64,000 bases of DNA from Flavobacteriaceae bacterium UBA3356 (GTDB lineage: Bacteria; Bacteroidota; Bacteroidia; Flavobacteriales; Flavobacteriaceae), in contig DEQW01000003.1 of assembly GCA_002360635.1 (NCBI GenBank), positions 370,552-434,551 of the forward strand, given 5' to 3'. The notes below the pieces were generated by a model that was given only the letters and a program-made list of their open reading frames with translations, ran no database searches and was not told the DNA's origin. Within the stretch, counting starts at the first letter, position 1, and every line of letters starts with the position of its first letter. A program made the position numbers and the translations under genes. Below are positions 4,998-52,987 of this stretch, piece after piece.

Positions 4998-5013
4998 TAG
5001 CATTTAATCAATA

Positions 5014-5580: not shown

Positions 5581-5615
5581 ATTTCAAGCCAAACCTTCCT
5601 TTTTAAGGCGAAGGT

Positions 5616-6737
5616 TTATAATGCTAATTTCTTGGAAGTTCTTTTTGGCACTGCATCTTTATGTACCATAATACTAATGGTTTTTAGTTTCATAAAAGAT
5701 TCGCTAAAGTACACATATCCACCATTTGCATTTCGACTTTCATCGGTTCCCCAGCTATTTTTCACTTTATAATATTTTGTACCATTTTGGTCCCGCAACA
5801 TTCCAGTAATATGCATCAGGTGGTCGTCTGTCGTATTATAATTTTCAAATTCAGCTTGGCGGTACTCTTGTGTAATGTTTTTTTCTGGATAGACACCTTG
5901 TAGCGCTTTTATGTTATTTTCTGAATCTTCAGGTATCACCGCAACGCCATCTTTAGAAGAAAAAGTACGTTCGCTTACATCGCAATCCAACTCAACCGTG
6001 AAACCGTTTTGAAGTGCGTTGTCAATAGTCGCCATCATTTCGTTTAACGGAACATTATAAAAACTACCATTGCTCCAATTGTCAGGAATATTCAGTATAA
6101 ATTTTGAATAAAAAGGCGCTTGTGTAAACGAAGTGATACTTACGTAGTCTTCCGGAACAAGCTGCGTCATTTTTAAAAACGATTGCGGCGTAAATTCTTT
6201 CCCTTCAAACTGAAATGTTTTCGGGTTATTGCCCAAATACACATCTAACACGCTCGAAACAGCTTTTTTCCACTTGGGGCTTAGAGCTTTTGCAGGATTG
6301 TCAATATAGGTTTCAAGCATCGACTTTAAAACAGCGACCAATTCGGCGTGGTTATGGTTTTCTTCCGTAGCAAATAAACCACTGTACGCCTCTTGTGTTA
6401 CCAAACCATAATCACGAACAGAGTTAATTACATCGTGTGCCAATCCACCTTCGCTAAACTGCGCCTTACCTTGACGCATCACAAAATTTTCAGCTTTTTT
6501 AGGATAAGTATTACGCACAGTGTACATTTCAGAAAGGTTGATTTCTTTTCCGGTCAATCTAATTATTTCAGATTCTAAAAAAGAAGATGTGGAAAAGCTC
6601 CAACAGGTTCCCGTTCGGCCTTGGCTTATAACAGGTGTAGTTTCCAGATCAATTTCCGTAGTGAACTTATAAGCTTCTTGAGCGGTTATAGTTAGTGTTG
6701 TTAAGGCAATTCCGAATAAAAAAAGTAGCGTTCGCAT
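5616..6737 (-). CDS. C1B cysteine aminopeptidase (PepC/bleomycin hydrolase family), secreted
   Basis: QGRTGTCWSF (Cys), DDHLMHI (His), KNSWG (Asn); start ATG 6737 gives signal peptide MRTLLFLFG. Confidence 0.9.
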   Translation of the reverse strand: MRTLLFLFGIALTTLTITAQEAYKFTTEIDLETTPVISQGRTGTCWSFSTSSFLESEIIRLTGKEINLSEMYTVRNTYPKKAENFVMRQGKAQFSEGGLAHDVINSVRDYGLVTQEAYSGLFATEENHNHAELVAVLKSMLETYIDNPAKALSPKWKKAVSSVLDVYLGNNPKTFQFEGKEFTPQSFLKMTQLVPEDYVSITSFTQAPFYSKFILNIPDNWSNGSFYNVPLNEMMATIDNALQNGFTVELDCDVSERTFSSKDGVAVIPEDSENNIKALQGVYPEKNITQEYRQAEFENYNTTDDHLMHITGMLRDQNGTKYYKVKNSWGTDESRNANGGYVYFSESFMKLKTISIMVHKDAVPKRTSKKLAL

Positions 6738-36964: not shown

Positions 36965-38086
36965 TTATTCACTGCCTAGCAGTGATTCCATTTTGGCTCC
37001 TAGAGCTGGACCACGAAGATTTTTGTCTATTATCTTTCCATTTTCATCTAAAAGGAAGGTGGCTGGAATCGCTCTTACATTATACTGTCTTGCAATGGGA
37101 TCTTGCCAAAACTGAAGATTTGATACGTGATACCAATCCATATTGTCATCGGCGATAGCCTTTATCCATTTGTCTTTTTGTTTCTGGCGGTCTAAGGAAA
37201 CACTTATAATGTTTAGACCTTTGTCGTGGTACTTTTCATAAACTTTTACAACATTTGGGTTTTCAACTCTACAAGGTTTGCACCAAGAAGCCCAAAAATC
37301 GATAATCGTGTATTTTCCCATGGCTTCTTTTAAAGAAAGCATTTCGCCTTCTGGAGTAGGAGCGCTAAAGTTTGGCGCTATTGAGCCAATATCTGCTTTT
37401 CTAGCATTGGCAATCATTGCTTCAACCTGTGTTACAATAGGAGAGGACGAAACTTTTGGTGAAAGGTTATTTAAAACTTCACTAGCCTCTTCGGCAGTCA
37501 TTTCTTTACGAGTAAGCATTTCAGAAAGAAGCATTACCGAGAAGATTGAGTTTTTGTTACTTTTTATAAACTCTTTTTTAAACTTGGTTTCTTCTTTTGT
37601 TAAAGCCATATTCTCCTCCTGAATTTGCTTAATAGCTTCAACATCTCCATTTTGTTGAGCTGTTCTAAACGCTTTCATTTGAGCCTGCTTTTCTTCATTA
37701 ATGCTGCGCATTTCTTCAGAAAAAGAAGTAAAAGCTTCATTTTGCTTCCCTCCAGAAACAAAAGAAGAGCCGATACTGTCTTTGTAAAGCGTGGCTTTCA
37801 AATCTTCATTTTCAGGAAAATAAACAATATTTGCCTGAACACCTTCTACGTTAATATAATTAACAGAACTACTGTCACTTTTTGGGTAAGTACCTTCAAA
37901 AGTTCCGTTTGTAATACTAAGTGTATCGATTGCTTTTGGTTGGTTACTATCTTTAATGCTGTACACATATACTTTGGTGCCGTCGTCAAAATTCTTGGCA
38001 GTTCCTTGTAGCTTGTATGTATTGCTGTCTCCTGCACAGGAAATTAAAAGTGTTGCTGTAAGTAATGTAGCTAATAATCGTCTCAT
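36965..38086 (-). CDS. TlpA-family disulfide reductase lipoprotein (DUF4369 + thioredoxin)
   Basis: Lipobox LISC, DFWASWCKPC, IPATFLLD; ATG 38086; -7 TATTTTTG at 38107-38114. Confidence 0.92.
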   Translation of the reverse strand: MRRLLATLLTATLLISCAGDSNTYKLQGTAKNFDDGTKVYVYSIKDSNQPKAIDTLSITNGTFEGTYPKSDSSSVNYINVEGVQANIVYFPENEDLKATLYKDSIGSSFVSGGKQNEAFTSFSEEMRSINEEKQAQMKAFRTAQQNGDVEAIKQIQEENMALTKEETKFKKEFIKSNKNSIFSVMLLSEMLTRKEMTAEEASEVLNNLSPKVSSSPIVTQVEAMIANARKADIGSIAPNFSAPTPEGEMLSLKEAMGKYTIIDFWASWCKPCRVENPNVVKVYEKYHDKGLNIISVSLDRQKQKDKWIKAIADDNMDWYHVSNLQFWQDPIARQYNVRAIPATFLLDENGKIIDKNLRGPALGAKMESLLGSE

Positions 38087-38230
38087 AATAGGTATATTTG
38101 TAAACGCAAAAATAACAGTATTTGTTTCTGAAAAAAAATGCAACTCTCAAATTATTGTTAATTTGTTAAAACGATTTATTTTTTAGAAATAAAATTATAC
38201 TTTACAATAAAATAACAAGTAGGTAATTAG

Positions 38231-40609
38231 TTGATAATGAAAACACAAAACGGTGAATTTCCTTTAAAGGTACAAGTGAGCTTTAGTAAGCTTTTTAATA
38301 AGTATCGTGCGCAACTGGATGCTCCTCAAGAAATGATTAGGGAGCGTGCAAAAGCTGTTTTGGAAATAGCCGAACAATATCCTATCCTAGAAAAAGGGAT
38401 TACAACCAAGGCTCAATTTGAAAAGTACGATGAGCAAATCGATATTGTTTTGGACGAGTTATTTTCTTCTATTTTACAAGAAAATGAAATAAAACTGGCC
38501 ACAGTTCCTTTTCAGGAGTTTGTTTTCAAATCATCTAAACGATATAAAAACATTATTGCGGCAGCAGGAGAGGAATTTATACCACAACTTGCCAATTTTG
38601 ATGATGACTACACTTATATAATGAGCTGTAGCATTATTTTAAATGTACATTATGGGTATAACGTGGATTTTAAACGTCCGTTGCATTACACAATACCAGA
38701 TGCCGATGGTGTAAATCATACCTATCGTACTTTATATAATGGAGATTTTGTTGACCTAATACCAACTGATAAGGCGGTTGATATTACAGATGCAGATGTT
38801 GAAGAGCTGTTGGACGGTTTTGATAATATTGCACTGTGGAAAGAAAAATTTCCGCCCGGAAGTTGGATTTTTAAAGGCTTTGTAATTGCCAATATGTTCG
38901 ATGTTACCTTAGATGCATCTATTTCGGACTTTAAATCCAATTTATTACGTAATAATCCCGAAACTGAAGATAACACTAAAACGTTTGAATCTATCTTCAA
39001 ATCTATTTTTCAACTTCAGGAACTTAAAATTGGTTTTTCAGAATTTAATGAAGAAGATCAATTGTTCGAAAAATTTATCTTTAAGAATATCGACAGCTTC
39101 ATATTAAATGAAAAAGACAAACAGAATTGCCAAACAGCGCTTTGTGACGCATCGTATTACAAACTTTTTAAACAAAAAGAGTTTTATTGTATATCGAACG
39201 TGCCAAAATACCATAAGCTGTACCCCGATAATATTTTATATAAAAAACTGTTGGATCAAGGCATTAAAAGTGCCATTTTAGCATCTATTGTAAATAAAGA
39301 AAACAAAGTATTGGGGATTTTAGAATTAGTATCTCCTAATATTAACGACCTTAACTCTATAAACGCCAACAAGCTACATACAATTATGCCCTTCTTGGTA
39401 GATTCAGTAGTTCGTGGAAAAAAACAAATTGAGAACAAACTCGAGTTAATCATTCAAGAAGAATGTACGTCCTTGCACCCCAGTGTACATTGGAAATTTA
39501 GAAAAGAAGCTAAACGTTACTTAAACTCCATCTCACAAGGGAACCCTACGTACTTTAAAGAAATTATTTTTGAAGACGTACACCCACTATACGGTCAAAT
39601 TGACGTTAAAGGTTCTTCGGAAGCAAGGAATAATGCGACTATAAAAGACTTAATACTTCAACTGAAACAAATTAAGGAAATAATCAAGAAAATAAATAAC
39701 CTTGAACCACTTCCTATTTATGAACATTTAGAGTTTAGAATAACAAACTATCTTACAGATCTTAAAGAAGGCTTGCAAGTAGATAGCGAGCGTCAAGTGC
39801 TTAAGTTTTTGAGAACAGAAATAGTTCCTTTATTTAAGCATTTAGGTACTAAAAATGAAAATTTAAAGAATTTAATAAAAAACTATAACGAACAGGTAGA
39901 TGAAAATAGCGGTTTAATTTATAAGTACCGTAAGGACTATGATGATGCTGTAATGATCATCAATAAGCGTATGGCTTCAATTATTGATAAAAAACAAATT
40001 GAAGCTCAAAAAATGTATCCGCATTATTTTGAACGTTTTAAAACCGATGGAGTAGAGCACAACTTATATATTGGCGAAGCCATCACCAAAAATAAAAATT
40101 TCAATAAAGTTTATCTGTATAACTTGAGATTATGGCAATTACAGGTAATGTGCGAAATGGAAAACAATTACTACAAGCTTAAAGAGCAATTGCCCATGCA
40201 ATTAAATGTAGCTTCTATGATCTTGGCTTTTAATGGTTCTTTGTCACTTCGGTTTAGAATGGACGAAAAACGCTTTGATGTAGACGGAACTTACAATGCA
40301 CGTTATGAGGTTGTGAAAAAACGGGTTGATAAGGCAAACATTAAAGGAACTGAGGAGCGTGTTACGCAAGAAGGTAAAATTGTCATTATTTATTCTCAAA
40401 GAGAAGATGAAAAAGAGTATTTAAAGTATATTTCATTCCTTCAACACAAAAAACAGCTAGATAAAGATGTTGATATTGTAGAACTTGAAGATCTACAAGG
40501 TGTTACAGGTTTAAAAGCCATACGTGTAAGTGTTCTTTACTCTAAAGACAAGGACAATAAAAAAGAATACTATACTTACAACGATTTAATTACTGAAATC
40601 AATAATTAA
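38231..40609 (+). CDS. GAF-domain protein with C-terminal class III nucleotidyl-cyclase-like motifs
   Basis: GAF signature GIKSAILASI...VLGILELVS; IDVKGSS (D458), FKTDGV (D606), KRFDVDGTYNARYE; cyclase call is an inference. Confidence 0.75.
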   Translation: MIMKTQNGEFPLKVQVSFSKLFNKYRAQLDAPQEMIRERAKAVLEIAEQYPILEKGITTKAQFEKYDEQIDIVLDELFSSILQENEIKLATVPFQEFVFKSSKRYKNIIAAAGEEFIPQLANFDDDYTYIMSCSIILNVHYGYNVDFKRPLHYTIPDADGVNHTYRTLYNGDFVDLIPTDKAVDITDADVEELLDGFDNIALWKEKFPPGSWIFKGFVIANMFDVTLDASISDFKSNLLRNNPETEDNTKTFESIFKSIFQLQELKIGFSEFNEEDQLFEKFIFKNIDSFILNEKDKQNCQTALCDASYYKLFKQKEFYCISNVPKYHKLYPDNILYKKLLDQGIKSAILASIVNKENKVLGILELVSPNINDLNSINANKLHTIMPFLVDSVVRGKKQIENKLELIIQEECTSLHPSVHWKFRKEAKRYLNSISQGNPTYFKEIIFEDVHPLYGQIDVKGSSEARNNATIKDLILQLKQIKEIIKKINNLEPLPIYEHLEFRITNYLTDLKEGLQVDSERQVLKFLRTEIVPLFKHLGTKNENLKNLIKNYNEQVDENSGLIYKYRKDYDDAVMIINKRMASIIDKKQIEAQKMYPHYFERFKTDGVEHNLYIGEAITKNKNFNKVYLYNLRLWQLQVMCEMENNYYKLKEQLPMQLNVASMILAFNGSLSLRFRMDEKRFDVDGTYNARYEVVKKRVDKANIKGTEERVTQEGKIVIIYSQREDEKEYLKYISFLQHKKQLDKDVDIVELEDLQGVTGLKAIRVSVLYSKDKDNKKEYYTYNDLITEINN

Positions 40610-41814
40610 GACATTCTAGAACCGCCTAAATAGAAAGATATAGCGAAAGCTAGTATCGATATAATAGTTCCTGTAACAAATATGGTATAGGTCCATCTTA
40701 AAATACGATATTTACGATCTAACACCTTACCTAAAAAGTACAAATCTTTGGTTAATGCAGTATAAACGTAATCACGGTCTTTAAGTAATTCTTGCATTGC
40801 CCATTCGTATTCTTGAAGTTCCATGCGATGGAAATTTCCGAAGAAAGCTAGGTTTACACTTTTATTGTCAACATCTTCTTTCGTGAACTCGCCTCTCGTA
40901 ACATTGGGGCGTGTAGCTATTACCGATAAAATCATTGTAATAGCACTGAAAATAACGAATATTGCCGTCGGTATTATTAAATAATCGTTGGAAGGATTGT
41001 CTAGTTTTGAAAGTAAATTAGAGAGTACCAACGAAATGATAATGGCATTTACCGAAAGCAGTATGTTTGCTTTGGTATCGGCAATATCACTTAATTTAAT
41101 GTGGTTTCTAAGCGCAGTTCTATAAAAGGTTTGAATGCCTCGATCTACGCTTTTATCTTTATATTTAGCCTTTAATTGGGCTTTAACTTCTTCTTTCTTT
41201 ATTTTCTTTTTTATTTTTTTGTTCTTGCCTATTAAATCAGCCAAGTTTTCTTGTTTGGTATTTTGCCAATTGTTTAAAGCATAAGAAGTATAAAACTTGT
41301 GTTTGTTTATAAGAAGATCGATGTTTTCGTCCCGCCATTCTTGAGGGGTATAGTTTTTAATGTTCTGGGCAATGTATTCTTGCCTTAAAAACTCACTGGC
41401 CTCTTCAAAATAGTCTTTCCCAAAATGCGAAGAGTCTGCATCGCGCATTATTTCCTCCATATGATCTTTGGGAGTTGTGTTTTTAAACTTGGTAGCCATG
41501 ATGCATTTTTCAACGCCATCGATAATGTCTTTTTCAACATCTTTAGACTCCAGAAACTCACGTGCAATTTTTACGCTCTCTTCTTCGTGGCCTTCCCGTT
41601 TAACAATGTATCCCGTGTCGTGCAGTATGGCGGCCAATTTAAGGATGGTGGCATCTTTAACAGAAATTTGTGAGTCTTCAATAATTTCGTTTATACTTTT
41701 ATAAACACGTTTTGTGTGCGAATAGTTATGATAAACAAAGGTGTTGGGTAACTTTTCCTTAAAGAGGTTAAGTACAAAATTATCCGCTTCTTCAATTATA
41801 TCTTTGTCGCTCAT
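40606..41814 (-). CDS. HD domain + Pycsar-effector-like (DUF5706/PycTM) membrane protein
   Basis: YHN..H, AAILHDTGY, DADSSH HD motifs; ADTKANILL, RP, LAFFG, RKY..LR plus three TM helices. Confidence 0.88.
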   Translation of the reverse strand: MSDKDIIEEADNFVLNLFKEKLPNTFVYHNYSHTKRVYKSINEIIEDSQISVKDATILKLAAILHDTGYIVKREGHEEESVKIAREFLESKDVEKDIIDGVEKCIMATKFKNTTPKDHMEEIMRDADSSHFGKDYFEEASEFLRQEYIAQNIKNYTPQEWRDENIDLLINKHKFYTSYALNNWQNTKQENLADLIGKNKKIKKKIKKEEVKAQLKAKYKDKSVDRGIQTFYRTALRNHIKLSDIADTKANILLSVNAIIISLVLSNLLSKLDNPSNDYLIIPTAIFVIFSAITMILSVIATRPNVTRGEFTKEDVDNKSVNLAFFGNFHRMELQEYEWAMQELLKDRDYVYTALTKDLYFLGKVLDRKYRILRWTYTIFVTGTIISILAFAISFYLGGSRMS

Positions 41815-41869
41815 AAAATCTCAGTTTTAAATATCCAAATTACTAAAAATACCACGCTTTAATTTGCTT

Positions 41870-44800
41870 ATGAAAAAAATTAACATCTTTATAACTTTTA
41901 TCACTGCACTATTGTTTTTCTCTTGTGCAACCTACCAACCTCAATACTCTTCAACCTACCAGACCAATTCTTTTTCTAGTGATGGAAAAGAAGTAGAAAA
42001 AACATTCTACTTAATGGGCGATGCGGGTTATTTATCCATAGGTGAAACAGAAAAAAACTTAGCGCTACAATCTTTCAAAAAGTATATAGCAGATAAAAAC
42101 ACAGAAAATGATAATCTGTTATTCCTTGGAAACAGCTTTTTTCCAGAAGGGCTCCCCGAAGATGATAGTCCTGAAAAAGAGAAAGCAAAACAAATTATAA
42201 AGCAGCAATTAGACGCTATTGAAAGTTTTAAAGGTACTGTTAATGTGTTGCCGGGTAACCTCGATTGGAAATCTGGTGTTGATGGTCTAGAATTAGAAGA
42301 AGACTTGTTGAAAGAAGCTTTAAATTCAGATTCTGTGTTAGAACCAAATAACGGATGTCCACTTGAAGAAGTGGAAATCAACGATTCGGTTCATTTAATA
42401 ATGATCGACACACAATGGTATATAGAAAACTGGGACAAGCACCCAAAAATGAATGACAAATGCCAGATTAAAAACCGAGCTAAGTTTTTAGTTGAACTAG
42501 AGGGCGAGCTTAAAAAAGCAAAGCAAAAAACAATAATCTTAGCGATGCACCACCCATTGTACACCAATGGTAAACATGGAGGGAAATTCCCAGCCAAAAA
42601 TCATTTACTGCCAGTTCCAGGTTTGGCATCCTTAATTACGCAAGTAAGAAGCCAAGGGGCAATATCTTCACAAGACAGATATAATGAAGCTTACAGCGAA
42701 TTAATGGGCAGAATTGAAGTGTTGGTGAAAGATCATAAAAATTTGGTTCTCGTTTCAGGTCACGATCGTTCATTGCAATATATTGAAGGAGCCAATGCAA
42801 AACAAGTTATTTCGGGATCTGCAGGAGATGCCACAGCTGCAGCTTTGGGTGAAAACGGAGAATTTTCATATGGTGGACAAGGTTTCAGTAAAGTGACTAT
42901 TTACAAAGATGGTTCAACTTCAGTTACATTTTTTAAAGCTGAAGAAGATGGAAGTTCAACCATTGTATTTGAAAAGGAAATTATAGCTCCAGAAAGAAAA
43001 TATAACGTTTCAAAATTACCAAATACATTTCCTAAAACCGTAAAAGCTGCTGTGTATAGCGATAGCTTGGTAAATAGAAGCAGTTTCTTTAAGACAGTTT
43101 GGGGCGACCATTATCGTAAAGTGTACGGCAAAGAAGTGTTAGCACCAACAGTAGATTTAGATACACTATACGGCGGCCTGACCGTAGAACGTGCTGGCGG
43201 AGGCCACCAAACAGTTTCACTTCGTTTAGTAGATAAAGAAGGTCACGATTATAATATGCGGGCGTTAAAAAAGAGTGCGGTACAATTTTTACAGACCGTA
43301 ATTCTTAAAAATGAAGTAATTGAAAGTGACTTTAAAAACACGCTCCCAGAAGACTTAATTTTAGATTTTTATACGGCGGCCCATCCATATGGAGCTTTTG
43401 CCATTCCAAAATTGGCAGATGCGGCAAAAGTGTTCCATACCAACCCCAAGTTGTTTTATGTTCCCAAACAAAAGGCGCTTGGTAAGTTTAATGAAACGTA
43501 TGGAGATGAATTGTATATGATTGTTGAACGTCCTGACGAAGAATATGACGAGGCTATTTTTGATTACGCTGAAGATATTATTAGTACCGATGATGTACTT
43601 GAAGAAATAAGAAAGGATGAAGAAAATAAAATAAACCAGAAAGCATACATTCGTGCCCGGATGTTCGATATGTTGATTGGAGATTGGGATCGCCATAACG
43701 ATCAGTGGCGATTTGCCTTACAAGAAGATGAAGACGGAAATAAAATATACACGCCAATCCCACGGGATAGAGATCAGGTTTTTGCAAACTTTGATGGCGG
43801 ATTGTTAGATGCAGTACGTACATTGTTTAGTACGGCTCGGCAATTTCAAGTGTACGGGCCAGAATTAAAACATACCAAGTGGTTTAATAGTGCCGGAATA
43901 AAGTTAGACCGCGCATTAGCCGAAAACTACGGAAGAGAAGAATGGATGGCTCAAGCAGAATACATTAAAGAAAATGTAACCGATGAAGTTATAGAAAATG
44001 CGTTTAATGATTTGCCTAAAGAAGTGCAAGATGAAACTGCTGAAGAAATTAAAGAAAACCTAAAAGGAAGGCGCGATAATATTGTAAGAATTGCTTCAGA
44101 ATATTACGACTACTTTTCAAATCTTCAAATTTTAACGGGTACCGATAAGGATGATATTTTCGAAATCACCCGACTTCCAGAAGGAAAAACAAATATCAAG
44201 GCTTATAGAATAAAAGATGGTGAAAAAGGAGACCTTATTCTTGATAGGACGTTTTCAAAAGATGACACCAAAGAGCTTTGGGTTTATGGACTCGATGATG
44301 ATGATGTTTTTGAAGTAAAAGGAAAAGGTAGCCGTCCAATTTTTACCCGAATTATTGGTGGACAAAATAACGACACCTACGATATTGAAAACGGAAGTAG
44401 AATAAAGGTTTATGACCAAAAAAGTAAGAAAAACACCATTAAAAATAAAGGTGGTGCAGCTTTTAGGATTACCAATAATTACAATTTCAATACCTACGAT
44501 TATATAAAAGAAAACAAAACCATAAACCTCTTATTACCGGCGTTTGGTTACAATGCAGATGATGGATTTTTAATTGGACTTTCTGATACGTTTACCGTTC
44601 ATGGCTTTCAGGAAAACCCATTTAAACAAAAGCATAGTGTAAAAGCAGGGTACTATTTTGCTACTGAAAGCTTTGATGTAAATTATAGCGGTGAGTTTGC
44701 CAATATTTTCTCAGATTGGAATTTCCTCTTAGAAGGACATTTCCGTAACCCAAATTTTTCTGAAAACTTTTTTGGCTTCGGAAATGAAACTGAAAATTTT

Positions 44801-45556
44801 GATGACGATCTAGGGAACGATTATAACCGAGTGCGTATAGGAAGTTATGGCGGCGCATTAGGAATTAAAAAAGATGGACGATATGGAAGTGCAATTGAGT
44901 TTAAAGCAAAATTTGAAGGTGTTGAAGTAGAAGATACCGACGGTAGATTTATTTCAGATATTGGATACCTAGATGTTGAGGAAAGAAAGTATTTTGCATC
45001 AGCTGAAGGTACATACACCTATGAAAGTTTTGACAATAAAGCCAATCCTGGTAGGGGAATGCATGCAAGTTTAACAGCAGGAGGAACTCAAAACATCGAT
45101 GATAGTGATCGTATTTTTGGATATGTAATTCCGAAATTAACTTTTTACAACGCATTGACAAAAGACAAAAAGCTGGTTTTAAACACCAAAGCAGTTGGTC
45201 ACTTTAACGTCGGAAATAATTTTGAGTTTTACCAAGGAGCCCAATTGGGTAGAGACTATGGTCTTCGAGGGTACCGTAGGGATCGCTTTACCGGTCGTAG
45301 TGCCGTAGCTGGAGGAGCAGATCTACGATACAGCTTTAATAGTTTTAGAACTGCCGTAACACCAATACAAATAGGTGTATTTGCTGGATATGATGCTGGT
45401 AGGGTATGGGTTCCTAATGATACTTCAGATGTATGGCACGATAGCTATGGTGGTGGTTTTTGGATTAATGCTGCCGATTTATTAAGTGGTACTGTTAATA
45501 TTTTTACATCAGATGAAGGTGTTCAGTTTTCTTTTAAAGTAGCTTTTTCAATGTAA
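41870..45556 (+). CDS. metallophosphoesterase(degenerate)-kinase-like-Omp85 lipoprotein, paralog 1
   Basis: Lipobox FFSC; GDAG/GNS/GNLD/HHP/GHDR; GGGHQT, ALKK, DRHNDQW, PRDRDQVF; barrel LRGYR..RF.G. Confidence 0.85.
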   Translation: MKKINIFITFITALLFFSCATYQPQYSSTYQTNSFSSDGKEVEKTFYLMGDAGYLSIGETEKNLALQSFKKYIADKNTENDNLLFLGNSFFPEGLPEDDSPEKEKAKQIIKQQLDAIESFKGTVNVLPGNLDWKSGVDGLELEEDLLKEALNSDSVLEPNNGCPLEEVEINDSVHLIMIDTQWYIENWDKHPKMNDKCQIKNRAKFLVELEGELKKAKQKTIILAMHHPLYTNGKHGGKFPAKNHLLPVPGLASLITQVRSQGAISSQDRYNEAYSELMGRIEVLVKDHKNLVLVSGHDRSLQYIEGANAKQVISGSAGDATAAALGENGEFSYGGQGFSKVTIYKDGSTSVTFFKAEEDGSSTIVFEKEIIAPERKYNVSKLPNTFPKTVKAAVYSDSLVNRSSFFKTVWGDHYRKVYGKEVLAPTVDLDTLYGGLTVERAGGGHQTVSLRLVDKEGHDYNMRALKKSAVQFLQTVILKNEVIESDFKNTLPEDLILDFYTAAHPYGAFAIPKLADAAKVFHTNPKLFYVPKQKALGKFNETYGDELYMIVERPDEEYDEAIFDYAEDIISTDDVLEEIRKDEENKINQKAYIRARMFDMLIGDWDRHNDQWRFALQEDEDGNKIYTPIPRDRDQVFANFDGGLLDAVRTLFSTARQFQVYGPELKHTKWFNSAGIKLDRALAENYGREEWMAQAEYIKENVTDEVIENAFNDLPKEVQDETAEEIKENLKGRRDNIVRIASEYYDYFSNLQILTGTDKDDIFEITRLPEGKTNIKAYRIKDGEKGDLILDRTFSKDDTKELWVYGLDDDDVFEVKGKGSRPIFTRIIGGQNNDTYDIENGSRIKVYDQKSKKNTIKNKGGAAFRITNNYNFNTYDYIKENKTINLLLPAFGYNADDGFLIGLSDTFTVHGFQENPFKQKHSVKAGYYFATESFDVNYSGEFANIFSDWNFLLEGHFRNPNFSENFFGFGNETENFDDDLGNDYNRVRIGSYGGALGIKKDGRYGSAIEFKAKFEGVEVEDTDGRFISDIGYLDVEERKYFASAEGTYTYESFDNKANPGRGMHASLTAGGTQNIDDSDRIFGYVIPKLTFYNALTKDKKLVLNTKAVGHFNVGNNFEFYQGAQLGRDYGLRGYRRDRFTGRSAVAGGADLRYSFNSFRTAVTPIQIGVFAGYDAGRVWVPNDTSDVWHDSYGGGFWINAADLLSGTVNIFTSDEGVQFSFKVAFSM

Positions 45557-45578
45557 ATCAAGAATATTAATATTGCTT

Positions 45579-48500
45579 ATGCGTTTCAAAAAGACAGCCC
45601 TTTTTTTAACTTTTATAACACTAGTAAGTGCTTGTGCTTCCTATGAACCTCAGTATAAAAACCCTGAGGCAGAGGCGTTATTTCCTTCAGATAAAAAAAT
45701 AGAACGAACTTTTTATTTAGTTGGTGATGCTGGTATTTCGCCTGCAAATAGAATGAGCAAGGGGCTTACTGTTTTTAATAATTATTTGAAAGAACACCCA
45801 ACTAAAACAAGTGATCACGCAATCTTTTTGGGCGATAATATTTACGATAACGGGATGCCCGCAGAAGGCCATCCAGATAGGGAAATCAGTGAATACTATA
45901 TGGACAACCAGTTTAAAGCATTAGAAGACTTTAAAGGGCAAACCTATATTATTCCCGGAAACCACGAATATTATTCAGGAGGGCTTGTCGGGCTTAAGCG
46001 CGAACAAGAGTACGTTCAAAAACATTTAGACTCTTTGTCTTTTCAGCCTACAGGAGGATGTCCATTGATAAATTTTTCAGTTTCAGAAAATGTTGAATTA
46101 TTAATTCTTGACTCACAATGGTATCTTGAAGACTGGAATAGCGATCCAGATTTCAACAAAAACTGCGAAATTAAAACGCGTGAAAAACTGTTTATTGAAA
46201 TAGCCAATGAACTTGAAAAGAATAAAAATAAAACGGTTCTTTTTGCTATGCACCATCCTATGTTTACCAATGGTACACATGGTGGCTATTTTGCTTTAGA
46301 AAAACATTTGTACCCTACACAAAGTAAGTTTCCATTGCCTATACTTTCATCTTTAGTGGTGCAAATACGTTCACAGGGTGGAGTGTCAGTTCAAGATAGG
46401 TACAATGAACTTTATAACAAGTTGATGAACCGTTTGGCTTCTTTAGCTAAAGATCATGGTCGGGTGGTTTTTACTTCTGGTCACGAACATACTCTTCAGC
46501 ACGTAGAAAAAGAGGGATTGGTACAAATACTTTCAGGTTCAGGTGGTAAATCATCACATGCGGCTTTAGGACAGAATGGGGTTTTTAGTTATGGTGGACA
46601 AGGCTTCGCTATTTTTGATATTTTAGAAGATGGATCTTCATTTGTAAGGTATTATGGTGGAACGGAAGACGACCAACCAAAACTGTTGTTTCAGAAAGAA
46701 GTATTTCCTTCTAATAAAACCTACCCTGCTTCTGTCTTGCCAAATAATTATGAGGCTACCAAAGAAGTTGCTATTTACGAGCAAGATAGTGTTAGTGAGG
46801 CCTTGTTTTTCAAAACAGTTTGGGGTGCTAAATATAAGGACGCCTATACTAATAAAGTCACAGCAAAAATTACATCATTAGATACACTTTATGGTGGTCT
46901 AGAAGTAATACGGGAAACAGGTAATGAAGAATATGATGCTTTAATTTTGGAAGACAAAAGAGGCAATAGGTACCGAATGCGTGCAATGAAGCAAAATGCT
47001 TTGGAGTTTTCACAAAAAATAGTTTTTGAAGAAGATACAGAAACTGAAAAAATAGATAAAGAAGACTCAAAAGTAGCTCCTAAAAATACCTTTGGCGTAG
47101 ATTTTTATACCGCAACCCATCCGTATGCACCACTTGCTCTCCCAACATTGGCAAAGGCTGCCAATATTTTTCATAATCAGACAGAACTATTCTATATCCC
47201 CAAACAAAAACAATTAGGAGTTTACAATGAAAAATTTGGAGACGCCCTTTATTTACTTACTACACAACCTGCTGAAAGCACTAAAGGTGAACCTCTTTTT
47301 GAGTATCCCGACGATATTGAAACAGCAGATGATATTCTTATAAAACTTCGAAGAGGCCGAGAGGTTTCAATAGATGAAGAAAACTTTATACGTTCCCGTT
47401 TATTTGATATGCTCGTGGGCGACTGGGATAGGGAACCAGGCCACTGGCGATGGGCAGAATACTTACGTCAAGATAGTGTAAATGTCTTTGTTCCCATACC
47501 AAGAAACAGGGATGATGCTTTTTCTAGCTTTGAAGGAAATGTGCTTGATATTGCAAGATCTATATTTGGTAGAACCTATGAAAAACAGGTGTATAATGAA
47601 AACCTACGAGACATACGATGGTTTAATAAAGAAGGAATTATATTAGACCGTGCTCTTCTAAAAAAATCAGGAAGGGAAGAATGGATTAATGCTGCAAAAA
47701 ACTTACAAAAAGTAATTTCAGACTCTATTATTGAAACCGCTTTTTCAACCATTCCCCGAAGCGTAAATAATGAATCTTTACAAGATATAATTACCGCCTT
47801 AAAAGGGAGAAGGGACAATCTTGAAAAAATTGCCGACAGGTATTACTCTTATTTGGCAAAATTACAAACTATTGAAGGAACCAATAAAAGAGACTTCTTT
47901 CAGGTAACTAGGTTGGCTGATGGAAAAACAAATGTACGGACTTACAATTTTCCTTCAGACGATAGAGGGATGTTAGTGGCAGACCGAACATTTCTTGCTT
48001 CAGAAACAAATCAGATTTGGATTTATGGTTTGGATGAAGAAGATATTTTTGAAGTGACTGGAACGGGCGATAATCCAATATTTGTAAGGTTAATTGGTGG
48101 TCATGGCAATGATGTGTATCGACTGATTGAAGGAAAAAAAGTAAAGGTGTATGATCACGAAAGTAAAGAAAATACCGTTGAGGTTAAAAATGGAGGGAAT
48201 TTACGACTTACCGATGTATATACCTTAAATACATACGACTACCGGAAAAACATTCAAAACACACATGCGTATGCCGCGGCATTTGGTTACAACCCTGATG
48301 ATGGGTATAGAGCCGGATTACAGTATGTTTATCAAGTAAACAGCTTTCAGCAAAACCCTTTTTCACGCCGACATAGTTTAAATGTTGGTTACTATTTTGA
48401 CAGCGATAGTTTCGATGTAAGTTATGAAGGAGAAATAGCCAATATTAGAAATACACTGAATTTAAGTTTCGGTGGTCGTTTTACAGGTCCTACTTACGTG

Positions 48501-49295
48501 GTAAATTACTTTGGTTACGGAAATGAAACTATCAATCCAGAAGACGATTTAGGCTTTAATTATAACAGGGTTCAAGTACAAACGCTTATGGCAAAAGCGG
48601 GATTGCTGCGAAACTCAAACTTTGGTAGCTTTTTTAAATTGCAAGGTAAGTTTGAAGCAATTCGTGTAAATGACGATATACCAGGTATTACAAATATTCG
48701 CAGAGTTGATAAAACTGAAAATTTTGATCCATATGGTACCCTTGAAGGTATTTATAATTACCGTAGTTTTGACAACTTTAGAAATCCAACTATTGGTATG
48801 ATGTTCGACCTAAACACGGGTGTAACAGGTAATTTCGATAATTTTAAAAGAGTATTTGGGTTTTTGAAGACCCGGCTTGGTTTTTACAATAGCCTAACCA
48901 CCAATAAAAAGTGGGTGTTAAAGACTAATGTTCGGGCAAAGTTTAACTTCGGGAGTCAATTCGAATTTTTCCAAGCCATTAATTTAGGTGCAAACACAGG
49001 CCTTCGTGGTTTTAGGGAAGAGCGTTTTTCTGGAAAATCTTCATTGGTAGGAAGTGCCGATGTTCGTTACAGTTTTGATGAATTTAAAGTTGGGCTAATT
49101 CCGTTGCAAATAGGTCTTTATGGCGGAGCCGATTTAGGCCGTGTATGGACCCCTGAATTTGATTCAGAGAAATGGCACAACTCGTATGGCGGAGGCCTTT
49201 GGATTAATGGTAGCGGTGGTTTAACCGGTTCAGCTAGCCTATTTCACTCTGTAGAAGGAGCTCGCTTGGTATTCGGCTTAGGATTTGACTTTTAA
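45579..49295 (+). CDS. metallophosphoesterase(intact)-kinase-like(degenerate)-Omp85 lipoprotein, paralog 2
   Basis: Lipobox VSAC; GDAG/GDNIY/GNHE/HHP/GHEH all intact; kinase motifs altered; LRGFR..RF.G and C-terminal Phe. Confidence 0.85.
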   Translation: MRFKKTALFLTFITLVSACASYEPQYKNPEAEALFPSDKKIERTFYLVGDAGISPANRMSKGLTVFNNYLKEHPTKTSDHAIFLGDNIYDNGMPAEGHPDREISEYYMDNQFKALEDFKGQTYIIPGNHEYYSGGLVGLKREQEYVQKHLDSLSFQPTGGCPLINFSVSENVELLILDSQWYLEDWNSDPDFNKNCEIKTREKLFIEIANELEKNKNKTVLFAMHHPMFTNGTHGGYFALEKHLYPTQSKFPLPILSSLVVQIRSQGGVSVQDRYNELYNKLMNRLASLAKDHGRVVFTSGHEHTLQHVEKEGLVQILSGSGGKSSHAALGQNGVFSYGGQGFAIFDILEDGSSFVRYYGGTEDDQPKLLFQKEVFPSNKTYPASVLPNNYEATKEVAIYEQDSVSEALFFKTVWGAKYKDAYTNKVTAKITSLDTLYGGLEVIRETGNEEYDALILEDKRGNRYRMRAMKQNALEFSQKIVFEEDTETEKIDKEDSKVAPKNTFGVDFYTATHPYAPLALPTLAKAANIFHNQTELFYIPKQKQLGVYNEKFGDALYLLTTQPAESTKGEPLFEYPDDIETADDILIKLRRGREVSIDEENFIRSRLFDMLVGDWDREPGHWRWAEYLRQDSVNVFVPIPRNRDDAFSSFEGNVLDIARSIFGRTYEKQVYNENLRDIRWFNKEGIILDRALLKKSGREEWINAAKNLQKVISDSIIETAFSTIPRSVNNESLQDIITALKGRRDNLEKIADRYYSYLAKLQTIEGTNKRDFFQVTRLADGKTNVRTYNFPSDDRGMLVADRTFLASETNQIWIYGLDEEDIFEVTGTGDNPIFVRLIGGHGNDVYRLIEGKKVKVYDHESKENTVEVKNGGNLRLTDVYTLNTYDYRKNIQNTHAYAAAFGYNPDDGYRAGLQYVYQVNSFQQNPFSRRHSLNVGYYFDSDSFDVSYEGEIANIRNTLNLSFGGRFTGPTYVVNYFGYGNETINPEDDLGFNYNRVQVQTLMAKAGLLRNSNFGSFFKLQGKFEAIRVNDDIPGITNIRRVDKTENFDPYGTLEGIYNYRSFDNFRNPTIGMMFDLNTGVTGNFDNFKRVFGFLKTRLGFYNSLTTNKKWVLKTNVRAKFNFGSQFEFFQAINLGANTGLRGFREERFSGKSSLVGSADVRYSFDEFKVGLIPLQIGLYGGADLGRVWTPEFDSEKWHNSYGGGLWINGSGGLTGSASLFHSVEGARLVFGLGFDF

Positions 49296-49315
49296 GAAAC
49301 CCCATAACTTATTGT

Positions 49316-52300
49316 ATGAAATTATCCCCATTTTACTTAATACTTTCTTTTCTGCTTTTAGCTTCTTGCGCTACATCAAAACTACAAACACGATTAGATA
49401 GAACAATTGATGATACCTATAACGAAGAAAATGTAGTAAATACTATTTATGTAACAGGAAATGCTGCTAAAAATAATGAAACAACTTTGTCTGTTTTAAG
49501 TAAAACGATTGCGAATAATGCTTCCAAAGAAAAAAGCGTTCTTTTTATTGGGGATAATATAGATGCTGAAAACGGCGAGGAAGAAAAACTTAAAAAGCAG
49601 CTTGATCCTCAAATTCGAGTAGTAAAAACTACTGGGGCTACCCCTTATTTTTTACCAGGAAATTACGAATGGGATTTCAATAAAACCAAAGGGCTGGAAA
49701 CAATTGAAGATTACTTAAAAGAAAATTTTGAAGATGGCGATATCCTAACCCCAAATAACGGTTGCCCTTTAGAGAGTATTGAGCTTTCAGAAAACATACA
49801 ATTAATAGCGGTGGATAGCCAATGGTTTATTGAAGACTGGGACAAGAACCCCAATATGAATGATAAATGCCAGATTAAAACACGTGAAAAACTTCTCTTG
49901 GAAATTGCTGGTGAAATAAAGAAAAGCGCCAATAAAATAATAATTTTTGCGATGCACCATCCTATGTTCACGAATGGTTTTCATGGAGGGCGATTTTCAT
50001 TTCGGGATCATATTTTTCCATTGCAAGGTAACATTCCATTGCCGGGTGTAGGAACACTCATTACCGAAATTCGTTCACAAGGTGGTGTGTCTAAGCAAAA
50101 CCGCTTTAACTATCGGTATAGTGAGCTTATGAAGGAACTTGAAATCTTACTGAATAAGCCCGACCATCGTATTCTAATAGTTTCAGGGCACGAGGAAAAC
50201 CTTCAGTATATCGAAGAAGGAAACTTTAAACAGTTGGTTAGTGGCGCTGCATCTACTACTAAACCAGTTTCGTTAAGTGACAATGGTATTTTTTCATACG
50301 GAAAACAAGGCTTTGCTTCTGTTGAAATAACAGATAAAGGAAGTGTTTGGGTCTCTTTTCATGCTTCGGAAGAAAAAAAAGACACATCAAATCTATTATT
50401 CAGAAGAAAAATTTTCCAGCCAATTGAAGAGCCAAAAACCGAATCGTATCCCAAAACATATCCGCGAACGTATACCGCTTCAGTTTACGATATTGAAAAA
50501 GTAGAAAAATCTGATTTTTTCAAATCCTTTTGGGGGCAACATTATCGAGATGTTTATGGAACGAAGGTAAAGGCATCTACAGCTTTACTAGATACTCTTT
50601 ATGGGGGATTAGAAGTGGTAAGGCCAGGAGGCGGACATCAAACGCGTTCCTTAAGGTTAGTGACAAAAGATGGTAAAGAATATAATATGCGTGCCCTTAA
50701 AAAGAGTGCTGTTCAACTATTGGAAACAACAACTTTTAATGGAATTGACGCTGAAAAATATTTCAGCAATACAGTACCGGAGGATTTAATTCTAGATTTT
50801 TACACAGCAGCACATCCCTATGGGGCATTTGCAATTCCAAAACTGGCCAAAGCGGCGGGTGTATATTATACCACGCCAGAATTGTATTACGTACCTAAGC
50901 AGCAGCGTTTAGAAAAGTATAATGAAGGCTACGGTAATCAATTGTATATGATTGTAGAACGTCCTGCGGAAGAGTATGAAAACCGTAAAAGCTTTGGATA
51001 TCCAGATAATGTGGAAAGCACAGACGACTTATTGGAAAAACTCAGGGAAGACGAGGACCATACCTTAGACGAAGCGACGTATATTCGAGCACGTATTTTT
51101 GATATGTTGATTGGCGATTGGGACAGACATAGCGATCAATGGCGTTGGTCAGAGTTTGAAGATGAGGATGGGAAGTTACAGTTTATACCCATTCCACGGG
51201 ATCGAGATCAGGTTTTTGCCAATTTTGACGGTAGCTTTTTAAACTTACTTAGAAAGTTATCTGGTTCAATAAATCAGTTCGGTATTTATAACGAAGATAT
51301 TAAGGATGTCGCTTGGTTTAATAAAGCAGGTTCAAAGTTAGACCGTGCCCTTATTAAACGAAGTGATAAGTCAACTTGGATTGAGGAAGCTAAAAAAATG
51401 CAAAAAGCAATTGACGAAGAAATTTTAGACAACGCTTTTAAGGACCTTCCTGTGGAAGTACAAGACACAACTAGTAGCGAGATAAAAAAATCATTTCTAA
51501 AAAGAAAAGAAAACCTTGTAAACATTGTAGAACGCTATTATCACGAGTTTATAAAATTTCAAATGTTGACAGGAACCGATAAAGATGATCATTTTGTTAT
51601 AAACCGTCAGCCCAATGGAAAAACACAAATAACTGCCTATAGAATAAAAGATGGGGAAAAAGGCGATGTATTGTTTGATAGGGTTTTTAACTCAGAAGAA
51701 ACAAAAGAGATTTGGTTGTATGGATTGGACGATGATGATGTTTTTGAAGTAAACGGTGTAGCAGAAAAAGCAATTTTAATACGATTAATAGGAGGGCAAG
51801 ATGATGATATTTATAACATTTCAGAAGGAAAAAAAATTGTAGTGTATGATAATAAAGATGATGAGGTAGAAATAAAAAATAAAGGTGGAGCCCGTTTTAA
51901 AACCACTAATATTTATGAAGCCAATAGCTATGATTACACGAAGAAGAAATCTTCTGCCAGTACCATTAGCTTGAAAACACTGTATAATAACGATACAGGA
52001 GTTTCTTTAAAAGCTTCTTACACGAATGATAAGTTTAACTTTATAAAAAACCCATACAGCAAAAGAACCAATATTTCACTTGATTATAATTTTCAAACCA
52101 CAGGATTTGATATTGACTTTTTAAAAGGGTTTGCGGCGGTAGTTAACGATTTTAATTTTGTGATAGATGGTAGGTATACCTCTTTAGATTATACTGAAAA
52201 CTTTTTTGGCTTCGGAAATGAAACAATTAATCCTGAAGATGATTTAGGGCTAAACTACAACCGTATTCAAATGGAAGGAATTCACGGCGGGCTGGCACTT

Positions 52301-52987
52301 GAAAAAGAAACAGATTATGGAAGTTTTTTTCAGTTAAAATTGAACCTAAATACAATAAAGTTAATTAATAATGAAAGTAATTTCTTGTTAGATGCAGCAG
52401 CAGAAGAATATACATTGCGGTCTTACTTTGCTGTTCCTGAAATTACTTATAGCTATAAAAATTATGATGCAGCTTATTTCCCAACCAAAGGAATGTTTTT
52501 TTCTGCCGCAGTAGGAGGGATTGATAATTTAAAATCGAATGATATTACTGGCTTTTTAAAGTCTTCCGTTTTGTTTTACAATTCACTATTAAGTAATAAC
52601 AGGCTTGTTTTGGAGACTGGGGCTTCTACACATTTGCAAGTAGGAGACAGGCCTGAATTTTACCAAACAGCGACTTTAGGAGCAAAAACAGGGTTAAGAG
52701 GGTACCGTGAGGGTAGATTTAAAGGCTTCAATAGCTTTTTAGGCAAAAGTGATTTATTGTATACGTTTCAACCCATAAAAACAGCTTTATTCCCTGTAAC
52801 GGTTAGAATACGTGGAGGGTACAATATAGGTCGTGTTTGGGTAAAAAGAGATACTTCAGAAAAATGGTACGATGCCTACGGTGGCGGATTTGATGTTTTA
52901 TGGACCAACGCCATAGTAGGAAGCTTTACGGCATTTAAAGGAGAAGAAGGAACTCGATTGTCTTTTGCACTTAAAATAAGCTATTAA
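49316..52987 (+). CDS. metallophosphoesterase(degenerate)-kinase-like-Omp85 lipoprotein, paralog 3
   Basis: Lipobox LASC; GNAA/GDNID/GNYE/HHP/GHEE; GGGHQT, ALKK, DRHSDQW, PRDRDQVF; LRGYR..RF.G, C-terminal Tyr. Confidence 0.85.
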   Translation: MKLSPFYLILSFLLLASCATSKLQTRLDRTIDDTYNEENVVNTIYVTGNAAKNNETTLSVLSKTIANNASKEKSVLFIGDNIDAENGEEEKLKKQLDPQIRVVKTTGATPYFLPGNYEWDFNKTKGLETIEDYLKENFEDGDILTPNNGCPLESIELSENIQLIAVDSQWFIEDWDKNPNMNDKCQIKTREKLLLEIAGEIKKSANKIIIFAMHHPMFTNGFHGGRFSFRDHIFPLQGNIPLPGVGTLITEIRSQGGVSKQNRFNYRYSELMKELEILLNKPDHRILIVSGHEENLQYIEEGNFKQLVSGAASTTKPVSLSDNGIFSYGKQGFASVEITDKGSVWVSFHASEEKKDTSNLLFRRKIFQPIEEPKTESYPKTYPRTYTASVYDIEKVEKSDFFKSFWGQHYRDVYGTKVKASTALLDTLYGGLEVVRPGGGHQTRSLRLVTKDGKEYNMRALKKSAVQLLETTTFNGIDAEKYFSNTVPEDLILDFYTAAHPYGAFAIPKLAKAAGVYYTTPELYYVPKQQRLEKYNEGYGNQLYMIVERPAEEYENRKSFGYPDNVESTDDLLEKLREDEDHTLDEATYIRARIFDMLIGDWDRHSDQWRWSEFEDEDGKLQFIPIPRDRDQVFANFDGSFLNLLRKLSGSINQFGIYNEDIKDVAWFNKAGSKLDRALIKRSDKSTWIEEAKKMQKAIDEEILDNAFKDLPVEVQDTTSSEIKKSFLKRKENLVNIVERYYHEFIKFQMLTGTDKDDHFVINRQPNGKTQITAYRIKDGEKGDVLFDRVFNSEETKEIWLYGLDDDDVFEVNGVAEKAILIRLIGGQDDDIYNISEGKKIVVYDNKDDEVEIKNKGGARFKTTNIYEANSYDYTKKKSSASTISLKTLYNNDTGVSLKASYTNDKFNFIKNPYSKRTNISLDYNFQTTGFDIDFLKGFAAVVNDFNFVIDGRYTSLDYTENFFGFGNETINPEDDLGLNYNRIQMEGIHGGLALEKETDYGSFFQLKLNLNTIKLINNESNFLLDAAAEEYTLRSYFAVPEITYSYKNYDAAYFPTKGMFFSAAVGGIDNLKSNDITGFLKSSVLFYNSLLSNNRLVLETGASTHLQVGDRPEFYQTATLGAKTGLRGYREGRFKGFNSFLGKSDLLYTFQPIKTALFPVTVRIRGGYNIGRVWVKRDTSEKWYDAYGGGFDVLWTNAIVGSFTAFKGEEGTRLSFALKISY

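Follow-up and report, generated by a model that had tools for sequence, protein, structure and literature searches.

The window, by which we mean the whole stretch of 64,000 nucleotides analysed from Flavobacteriaceae bacterium UBA3356 (contig DEQW01000003.1, positions 370,552 to 434,551), carries on its minus strand a gene whose product joins an HD phosphohydrolase domain to a membrane module of the PycTM family. This protein, HD-PycTM, is considered here together with the two genes that adjoin it, GAF-790 and a gene for a large barrel protein. The gene and its parts are as follows.

40606..41814, minus strand: HD-PycTM gene, 402 residues (open reading frame; Pfam matches to HD and PycTM; 6714 relatives in a word-indexed search)
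41230..41814, minus strand: YedJ-type HD phosphohydrolase domain, cytoplasmic, residues 1-195 (Pfam, invariant residues, AlphaFold2 model, PDB profile matches)
41080..41229, minus strand: Lys-rich helical linker, residues 196-245 (sequence; one long helix in the AlphaFold2 model)
40609..41079, minus strand: PycTM (pJV1-SpdB3 three-transmembrane) module, residues 246-402 (Pfam PF18967; PADLOC; hydropathy)
41002-41070, minus strand: first transmembrane helix of PycTM (hydropathy)
40906-40986, minus strand: second transmembrane helix of PycTM (hydropathy)
40696-40905, minus strand: conserved cytoplasmic loop of PycTM, between the second and third helices
40621-40695, minus strand: third transmembrane helix of PycTM (hydropathy)

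HD-PycTM is a member of the PycTM family, with a PF18967 score over the gathering threshold (E 9.6e-38, 129.3 bits against a cut-off of 27.2, residues 273-382) and three membrane helices by hydropathy (residues 249-271, 277-303 and 374-398). Its C-terminal half also matches the PADLOC models for PycTM and for the '2TM' effectors of cyclic oligonucleotide-based antiphage signalling systems (CBASS). The periplasmic turn is only six residues long, and the basic loop of 75 residues between helices 2 and 3 is the most strongly conserved segment of the protein. The motifs RPxV, NxxFFGNF and LGxVLxRKYRxL of this half are shared with stand-alone PycTM proteins encoded in clusters of the same type.

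The protein belongs also to the HD superfamily, in its YedJ-like branch: PF01966 scores over its threshold (E 6.2e-9, 36.6 bits against 22, residues 31-129) and the H..HD..D ligands are intact, with the NCBIfam HDIG match lying slightly under its threshold (26.7 against 27.6). Across 24 close and 13 distant relatives, down to 33% identity, the metal residues H29, H33, H65, D66, H76 and D125 never vary, and D127 hardly does. Profile matches in the PDB are to 2pq7 (1.5e-8), 3djb, 3gw7 (YedJ) and 3dto, and also to 3b57. The AlphaFold2 model gives the HD domain a predicted local distance difference test score (pLDDT) of 85-97; a Foldseek search with the model of HD-PycTM returns HD folds alone, at weak E-values, and matches no solved PycTM-like structure. 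In two alignments of relatives, the linker helix runs into a conserved juxtamembrane motif, RGIQTFYR..LSDIADTKANI. An earlier sequence-only reading of this DNA had claimed intact HD motifs fused to a three-helix DUF5706-type domain, and the Pfam scores, the invariant residues and the hydropathy profile bear this out.

HD-PycTM is a core gene. Presence and distance were counted in 201 evenly sampled Bacteroidota genomes. A PycTM-type match of the window's subfamily occurs in 79 of them, including all 14 genomes of the same family, and the best relatives of HD-PycTM, in genera such as Aequorivita, Altibacter, Ulvibacter, Patiriisocius and Rasiella, are 74-83% identical. We read HD-PycTM as the form that a core module of the Bacteroidota, passed on by vertical inheritance, takes in the Flavobacteriaceae. 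Its partners in the window lie on either side of it.

38231..40609, plus strand: GAF-790, convergent partner, 792 residues, soluble (open reading frame; no family match; AlphaFold2 and Foldseek; no transmembrane segment)
40606..40609, no strand assigned: TTAA common to both convergent stop codons (sequence)
41815..41863, no strand assigned: short gap separating the divergent HD-PycTM and first barrel genes, 49 bp up to the TTG and 55 bp up to the ATG at 41870
41864..45556, plus strand: 1230-residue protein with lipoprotein-type phosphoesterase, middle domain and Omp85-type barrel, divergent partner

The linkage of these genes was followed through 80 loci of named Flavobacteriaceae, ranging from Aequorivita to Tenacibaculum. 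GAF-790 adjoins HD-PycTM in 75 of the 78 loci that are informative, the two being convergent in 73 and co-directional, with GAF-790 upstream, in 2. The barrel gene stands next to HD-PycTM, head-to-head, in 62 of 79 informative loci and lies within 6.5 kb in 77 of the 79. In the wider sample the 1230-residue barrel protein is found in 88 of the 201 genomes, and its gene is no more than 5 kb from a PycTM-type gene in about 50 of them, spread over many families; it is the most constant partner of PycTM or HD-PycTM across the phylum. GAF-790 is a constant partner in the Flavobacteriales and in several other lineages. It occurs in 30 of the 201 genomes, all 30 of which have a PycTM protein (hypergeometric 1e-14, uncorrected for phylogeny), and in six genomes of other families the GAF-790 and PycTM genes are at most 15 kb apart.

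The order of the genes changes more readily than their company. HD-PycTM, GAF-790 and the barrel gene follow one another on one strand in locus L006, whilst L114 and L120 have GAF-790, HD-PycTM and the barrel gene in that order, with gaps of 19-85 bp. In L009 the co-directional series is HD-PycTM, a propeller gene, the barrel gene and GAF-790, and L010 has the same order with PPK1 inserted. Since the linkage is kept through rearrangement, the genes can be argued to form a functional unit. The sequence-only reading had named a lack of linkage in other genomes as a ground for refuting its pairing of HD-PycTM and GAF-790; the adjacency in 75 of 78 loci bears the linkage out. The overlap of their stop codons in a common TTAA at 40606-40609 is confirmed as well. 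As a description of the unit, a pair of genes is too narrow: the two are linked, but the most constant partner, the divergent barrel gene, was omitted. A complete genome of 2.6 Mb from the same family (G055) has apparently lost its PF00211 cyclases altogether, along with GAF-790 and the barrel gene, and retains only a shortened and diverged HD-PycTM (residues 6-317, 38% identity).

GAF-790 falls into two halves, a PAS/GAF-like tandem (38231-39430) and a conserved domain of unknown function (39431-40606). No hydrophobic segment is seen in its hydropathy profile, so the protein is soluble. Relatives are named 'GAF domain-containing protein' in the source databases, and no match to GAF-790 was found in Pfam, including its GAF models, in NCBIfam, in the PADLOC models or among PDB sequences. 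Many relatives carry the accession PF27174 in precomputed annotation; this is newer than the Pfam copy scanned. For an AlphaFold2 model made with 30 sequences the mean pLDDT is 75, with residues 1-400 predicted well and residues 400-792 forming long helices and a small alpha/beta unit. In Foldseek the N-terminal half matches bacteriophytochrome PAS-GAF(-PHY) structures (E ~1e-5, probability 1.0), with TM-scores that are low (0.15-0.18) owing to the multidomain query. A search with the C-terminal half gave 1102 representative proteins, of which the best 150 are nearly all of about 790 residues and matched in their own C-terminal half; the shorter ones among these 150 look like fragments, and no new architecture was gained.

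The neighbour of HD-PycTM had been called a putative cyclase on the sequence alone, and none of the searches supports that identity. Pfam at E<=10 on 13 diverse C-terminal halves gave only noise and no nucleotide-cyclase family, and a profile of the half had no match among all PDB sequences. Six-frame searches with PF00211 found four other cyclases in the whole genome, without matching GAF-790, and at E<=1 did not match the GAF-790 gene in any of ten genomes. A 130-sequence profile of the C-terminal half aligned by hhalign with a 30-sequence class III profile at a probability of 0.1%; against three cyclase profiles, tried with the whole half, with its end part and with the helical insert spliced out, the scores were 12-18 (P 0.08-0.5), those of the two further profiles and of the spliced version being 16-18 (P 0.08-0.2), and the probabilities over these comparisons ranged from 0.1 to 0.7%. 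The N-terminal half, as negative control, scores the same as the C-terminal half, whereas genuine divergent cyclases reach 99-100%. At the level of sequence profiles GAF-790 is negative as a class III cyclase. It is a putative sensor followed by a conserved domain of unknown function, and not demonstrably a cyclase; of the claimed cyclase-effector pair, therefore, the pairing is real and the cyclase is unsupported.

A cyclase could still be hidden in the C-terminal half, split or highly diverged and gated by the PAS/GAF tandem; its product would activate HD-PycTM, the HD domain would switch the response off, and the two genes would be a domesticated Pycsar-like pair. The near-universal adjacency in the Flavobacteriaceae and its survival of rearrangement favour such a pair, and the half has invariant Asp, Arg, Lys and His motifs of an enzyme-like kind, among them RFRMDEKRFDVDGTYNARYEVVKKRVDKA at 40250-40336. 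The AlphaFold2 model can be read, over residues 453-768 minus a helical insert at 495-595, in the order b1-a1-(b2-b3)-a2-b4-(arm)-a3-b5-a4-b6-b7, and greedy hhalign sets D458, KTDG and RFDVDG colinear with the cyclase motifs, both in keeping with a class III fold. That alignment scores at noise level, however, and the most conserved motifs, PLYGQIDVKGSS, YPHYFERFKTDGVEHNLYIG and RFRMDEKRFDVDGTYNARYEVVKKRVDKA, sit in segments of pLDDT <50. The N-to-R spacing of YNARYE is unlike that of the class III motif VNxAxR. No cyclase stands among the top 50 Foldseek matches; these, found with the whole of GAF-790, are PAS/GAF sensors, so that the C-terminal half is not judged by them. With the profile searches empty and the hhalign scores no better than those of the negative control, we regard a hidden cyclase as fairly unlikely.

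It is in other lineages that the ties to cyclic nucleotides appear. In the Balneolaceae loci L128, L129 and L136, a barrel gene, a gene for a 650-residue protein and a gene for a stand-alone PycTM (188-212 residues) are co-directional in that order, and in L128 a separate HD gene (204 residues) comes after the PycTM. The 650-residue protein begins with a class III cyclase domain, followed by tetratricopeptide repeats (TPRs), and is not homologous to GAF-790. Between the stand-alone PycTM and the PycTM half of the window protein the identity is 36-40%, and the two have the motifs IADxKANI, RPxV, NILFFGNF and LGxVLxxKYxLL in common. In single Balneolaceae proteins of 355-369 residues (P0468, P0500 and about 20 others), a cyclase domain (residues 1-150) is fused to a PycTM of the cluster type (residues 232-341). 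The L008, L131 and L137 clusters each include a smaller cyclase (355-386 residues), and in L134 a DUF2652 protein takes such a place; this family is probably a member of the nucleotide-cyclase clan, in line with a weak hhalign match (E 0.014). The HD domain is tied to cyclases too, through a 528-residue cyclase-HD fusion (L140:1688-3274), an operon of TPR-cyclase, HD and YitT/DUF2179 (L141, with HD and YitT at 4346-5809), an HD-YitT gene pair (L142:4313-5774) next to a divergent cyclase, and, after REC and REC-cyclase, an HD-YitT-DUF2179 fusion (L135:1813-3273). The combination of HD, YitT (five transmembrane helices) and DUF2179 beside a class III cyclase is a second HD-plus-membrane design, parallel to HD-PycTM.

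Cyclase-PycTM, cyclase-HD and HD-PycTM are all known as fusions, a pattern classically taken to mark three components of a single pathway, and this argues that HD-PycTM may be a membrane output linked to cyclic nucleotides that carries its own hydrolase. The cyclic-nucleotide link claimed earlier for the pair is in this way supported indirectly, by fusions and adjacencies elsewhere, though no sequence search finds a cyclase in the pair itself. With modest confidence, we favour the view that HD-PycTM is a vertically inherited envelope switch, linked to cyclic nucleotides and serving other ends than defence, with the barrel protein and GAF-790 as its putative partners.

The working of such a switch can be sketched from these ties of the PycTM and HD subfamilies, by fusion or adjacency, to the class III cyclases of other Bacteroidota. 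HD-PycTM would sit in the inner membrane, its metal-dependent YedJ-type HD domain lying in the cytoplasm and joined through the basic helical linker to the three helices of PycTM and their loop of 75 residues. The PucTM/PycTM effectors are hexameric, and by analogy the module probably forms oligomers in the membrane; PucTM is a hexameric three-helix assembly in a cyclic guanosine monophosphate system (preprint 10.64898/2026.08.12.744502). Binding of a nucleotide on the cytoplasmic side probably switches the state of the module, again by analogy, and the HD domain fused to it is likely to hydrolyse or sense the nucleotide signal, which would make the response self-limiting. The output would be regulated, non-lethal and physiological, and coupled to the phosphatase/kinase-like barrel partner in the outer membrane.

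Candidates for the source of the signal in this genome can be drawn from the way GAF-790 and cyclases are distributed. Among the clusters inspected, GAF-790 alone is present in 11, a cyclase or DUF2652 protein alone in 6, and both in 1. A cluster-type PycTM is present in 77 of the sampled genomes; nine of these are without a PF00211 match and all nine have GAF-790, whilst none of the 47 that lack GAF-790 is without PF00211 (hypergeometric 9e-5, uncorrected for phylogeny, at least three lineages). This near-alternation, though circumstantial, is the strongest argument for GAF-790 as supplier or controller of the signal, and to that extent it favours the hidden cyclase considered above. It suits equally well a GAF-790 that is a nucleotide-binding receiver or regulator; GAF is a classical binder of cyclic nucleoside monophosphates, so that GAF-790 could equally receive the signal. 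Four class III cyclases are encoded elsewhere in the window's genome, two of them of the cluster type and all unlinked to the window cluster. The candidates for the source are GAF-790 or one of these four.

Several points weigh against a cyclic-nucleotide switch. The cluster in this genome is without any encoded cyclase, and GAF-790, being convergent with HD-PycTM here, is not co-transcribed with it. Seven of the nine genomes without PF00211, which carry the trio, have no match to PF00211 or DUF2652 even at E<=1. The ligand can therefore not be a class III product in every genome, unless that product is made by GAF-790 or by an enzyme of another, unknown kind. The membrane part of HD-PycTM is modelled with a pLDDT of just 45-77, no substrate is assigned to HD proteins of the YedJ type, and their relatives in the PDB are uncharacterised. 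Everything beyond domain content and linkage is drawn from comparison. Finally, the recurrence of PPK1, SixA-like histidine phosphatases and phytase-like propellers as neighbours suggests phosphate or polyphosphate chemistry.

This last point leads to a different account, in which the genes form a phosphate, polyphosphate or envelope-maintenance module without a nucleotide messenger, the HD domain acting on polyphosphate or a phospho-compound and PycTM being an anchor or a conduit towards the barrel. It would fit with the barrel gene as the strongest partner and with the seven genomes that have the trio and no recognisable cyclase. PPK1 is found in the L010 and L137 clusters, a SixA-like His_Phos_1 gene in L132 and L137, and phytase-like or SdiA-regulated propellers in L007-L010, L012, L131, L133, L134, L137 and L139; there is also a weak resemblance, in structure and sequence, to PPX/GppA domain III. 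However, of about 26 loci inspected outside the Flavobacteriaceae, only 2 have PPK1 in the cluster. The cyclase-PycTM and cyclase-HD fusions, and the cyclase genes that stand precisely where the barrel gene ends and PycTM follows, are left unexplained, and the cytoplasmic loop of PycTM, where conservation is highest, would be unexpected in a mere anchor. We consider a messenger-free module quite unlikely. The PPK1 genes (L010:7330-9372; L137:8103-10709) and a SixA-like phosphatase gene (L132:6423-6929) stand directly after HD-PycTM in these clusters, which are from outside the Flavobacteriaceae. In the window's own genome the sixA-ppk1 pair is elsewhere (contig C3, ~761.5-764.1 kb), and the propeller gene and two PPK1 genes are unlinked to the window cluster.

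The remaining features of the window bear on its setting. The barrel gene is the first of three tandem paralogues at 41864-52987, whereas most relatives have one copy.

45573-49295, plus strand: second barrel paralogue, in tandem (Metallophos match across the two further copies)
49316-52987, plus strand: third barrel paralogue, in tandem (the further copies are 44-47% identical to the first)

Within about 10 kb of HD-PycTM the genes are of a housekeeping kind, coding for a gamma-glutamyltranspeptidase, an ACP phosphodiesterase, a phosphoglucomutase-type mutase, a lipid A acyltransferase, and rhomboid, SIMPL and thioredoxin-like proteins, and over this distance there are no mobile or defence genes among the neighbours. 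A setting outside any defence island, as had been claimed, is therefore confirmed; a defence island at the window was rejected, the neighbours being those of ordinary metabolism and the envelope. An operon of HD-PycTM with GAF-790 is likewise ruled out here, because genes that lie tail to tail can share no transcript. A scan of 38000-42100 found no terminator-like hairpin between or near the two genes, and transcription of each gene probably reads on into the coding sequence of the other. A promoter scan was uninformative, promoter-like sites being fewer than in shuffled sequence, and when RNA sequencing was sought for this DNA the runs containing it proved to be DNA runs only.

The same genome allows a direct comparison with defence, since it has three PF18967 genes in three contexts. 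One, on contig C5 at ~252.1-254.7 kb (L005:5921-8160, minus strand), is a canonical defence locus with a 2TM/PycTM effector (194 residues, PADLOC 1e-63), PycC (328 residues, 4e-155) and an E1-E2 protein (234 residues, 3e-96), and it resembles the E1-E2-associated Pycsar-like subclade (preprint 10.64898/2026.08.12.744502). A second, on contig C2 (L004:7799-15001, minus strand), lies with genes for a 713-residue protein, a four-GAF histidine kinase (982 residues), a receiver (124 residues) and a receiver-class III cyclase (346 residues); the PycTM itself has 200 residues. On its domain content this operon is a cyclase-PycTM pair predicted to be gated by two-component signalling. The PycTM half of the window protein is 16% identical to each of these two.

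The notion that HD-PycTM is itself a non-canonical antiphage Pycsar variant, an effector with its own HD domain, draws on its likeness to PycTM in PF18967 and PADLOC and to the CBASS 2TM effectors, and on the name 'Pycsar system effector family protein' that NCBI gives to its relatives. Of the marks of a Pycsar system it does have the effector domain (PF18967 three-helix or CNBD-TIR), with the PF18967 match at 9.6e-38. Beside it, though, the neighbour matches neither PADLOC PycC nor PF00211, the genome's PycC being on another contig. In place of a patchy, island-type distribution there is presence in 14 of 14 same-family genomes, synteny conserved in 80 loci, linkage across the phylum and housekeeping flanks. 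Having neither an adjacent PycC nor a defence-type distribution, HD-PycTM is a member of the PycTM family and not a Pycsar system. The genome's true Pycsar locus is elsewhere, and the contrast among the three contexts makes a defence role for the window gene very unlikely, to the point of being hardly credible. That the genes form a domesticated circuit rather than a defence system, as the sequence-only reading had proposed, is well supported by the core gene, its synteny, its housekeeping neighbours and the separate Pycsar locus.

To our knowledge, PycTM-type three-helix proteins are otherwise known solely as suicide effectors of antiphage systems. The locus described here is a housekeeping variant of that effector family, within an undescribed, phylum-wide envelope module, and comparison of sequences makes its proposed link to cyclic nucleotides well motivated. 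A branch of the PycTM family is here kept as a core gene by a whole phylum, fused to its own hydrolase and tied to an enzyme barrel of the outer membrane. If the proposed mechanism is right, a defence-type pore module has a non-lethal, physiological role, and HD-PycTM offers a natural system in which to study the gating and resetting of such modules, as well as a clue to the origin of defence effectors. GAF-790, whose representative clusters number over 1000, and the HD proteins of the YedJ type are widespread candidates of unknown function for new nucleotide or phosphate chemistry. A bolder proposal, which we think unlikely, is that GAF-790 founds a new class of sensor-gated second-messenger synthase, unrelated to class III cyclases or diverged from them beyond recognition, that would feed a PycTM-type channel and through it the barrel, and that such a housekeeping trans-envelope circuit was the source of the Pycsar, Pucsar and CBASS three-helix effectors. 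A warning on the transfer of annotation can also be drawn, since the NCBI label quoted above is already attached to core proteins.

Searches of the literature for DUF5706, PycTM, PF18967, HD, YitT and cyclase found no description of the HD-PycTM protein or its module, and the comparison is therefore with systems that share its parts. The PycTM and PucTM effectors (PF18967, formerly DUF5706) are like HD-PycTM in their membrane module, with three helices and a conserved cytoplasmic loop. HD-PycTM differs in the fused HD domain, in having no adjacent PycC, in being a syntenic core gene rather than part of a patchy island and in being linked to the barrel gene; regulation rather than abortive infection would be expected of it. 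The CBASS '2TM' effectors (PADLOC PDLC00700, PDLC00691 and others) are matched by the C-terminal half at E 1e-8 to 1e-13, far more weakly than by the genome's own defence effector (1e-63), and there is no CD-NTase nearby.

For the HD half, the best relatives in sequence and fold are the YedJ-type hydrolases (E. coli YedJ, 3gw7; 2pq7, 3djb, 3dto, 3b57 and 2pjq), which have the same H..HD..D site. These are soluble proteins of about 200-240 residues with no assigned substrate, whereas the domain here is membrane-tethered and, in relatives, coupled to cyclases. GAF-790 recalls the class III cyclases with tandem-GAF or phytochrome-type sensors, such as cyanobacterial CyaB1 and CyaB2, in having an N-terminal PAS/GAF-like tandem followed by a C-terminal output domain. 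It departs from them in an output domain that matches no cyclase profile and has a helical insert of about 100 residues, and in having no Pfam GAF match. A parallel to the proposed logic comes from type III CRISPR systems, in which Csm6 enzymes degrade their own cyclic-oligoadenylate activator. The folds, the messenger and the defence context are different, but the design would be the same as that proposed for HD-PycTM, with receptor or effector and off-switch in one polypeptide.

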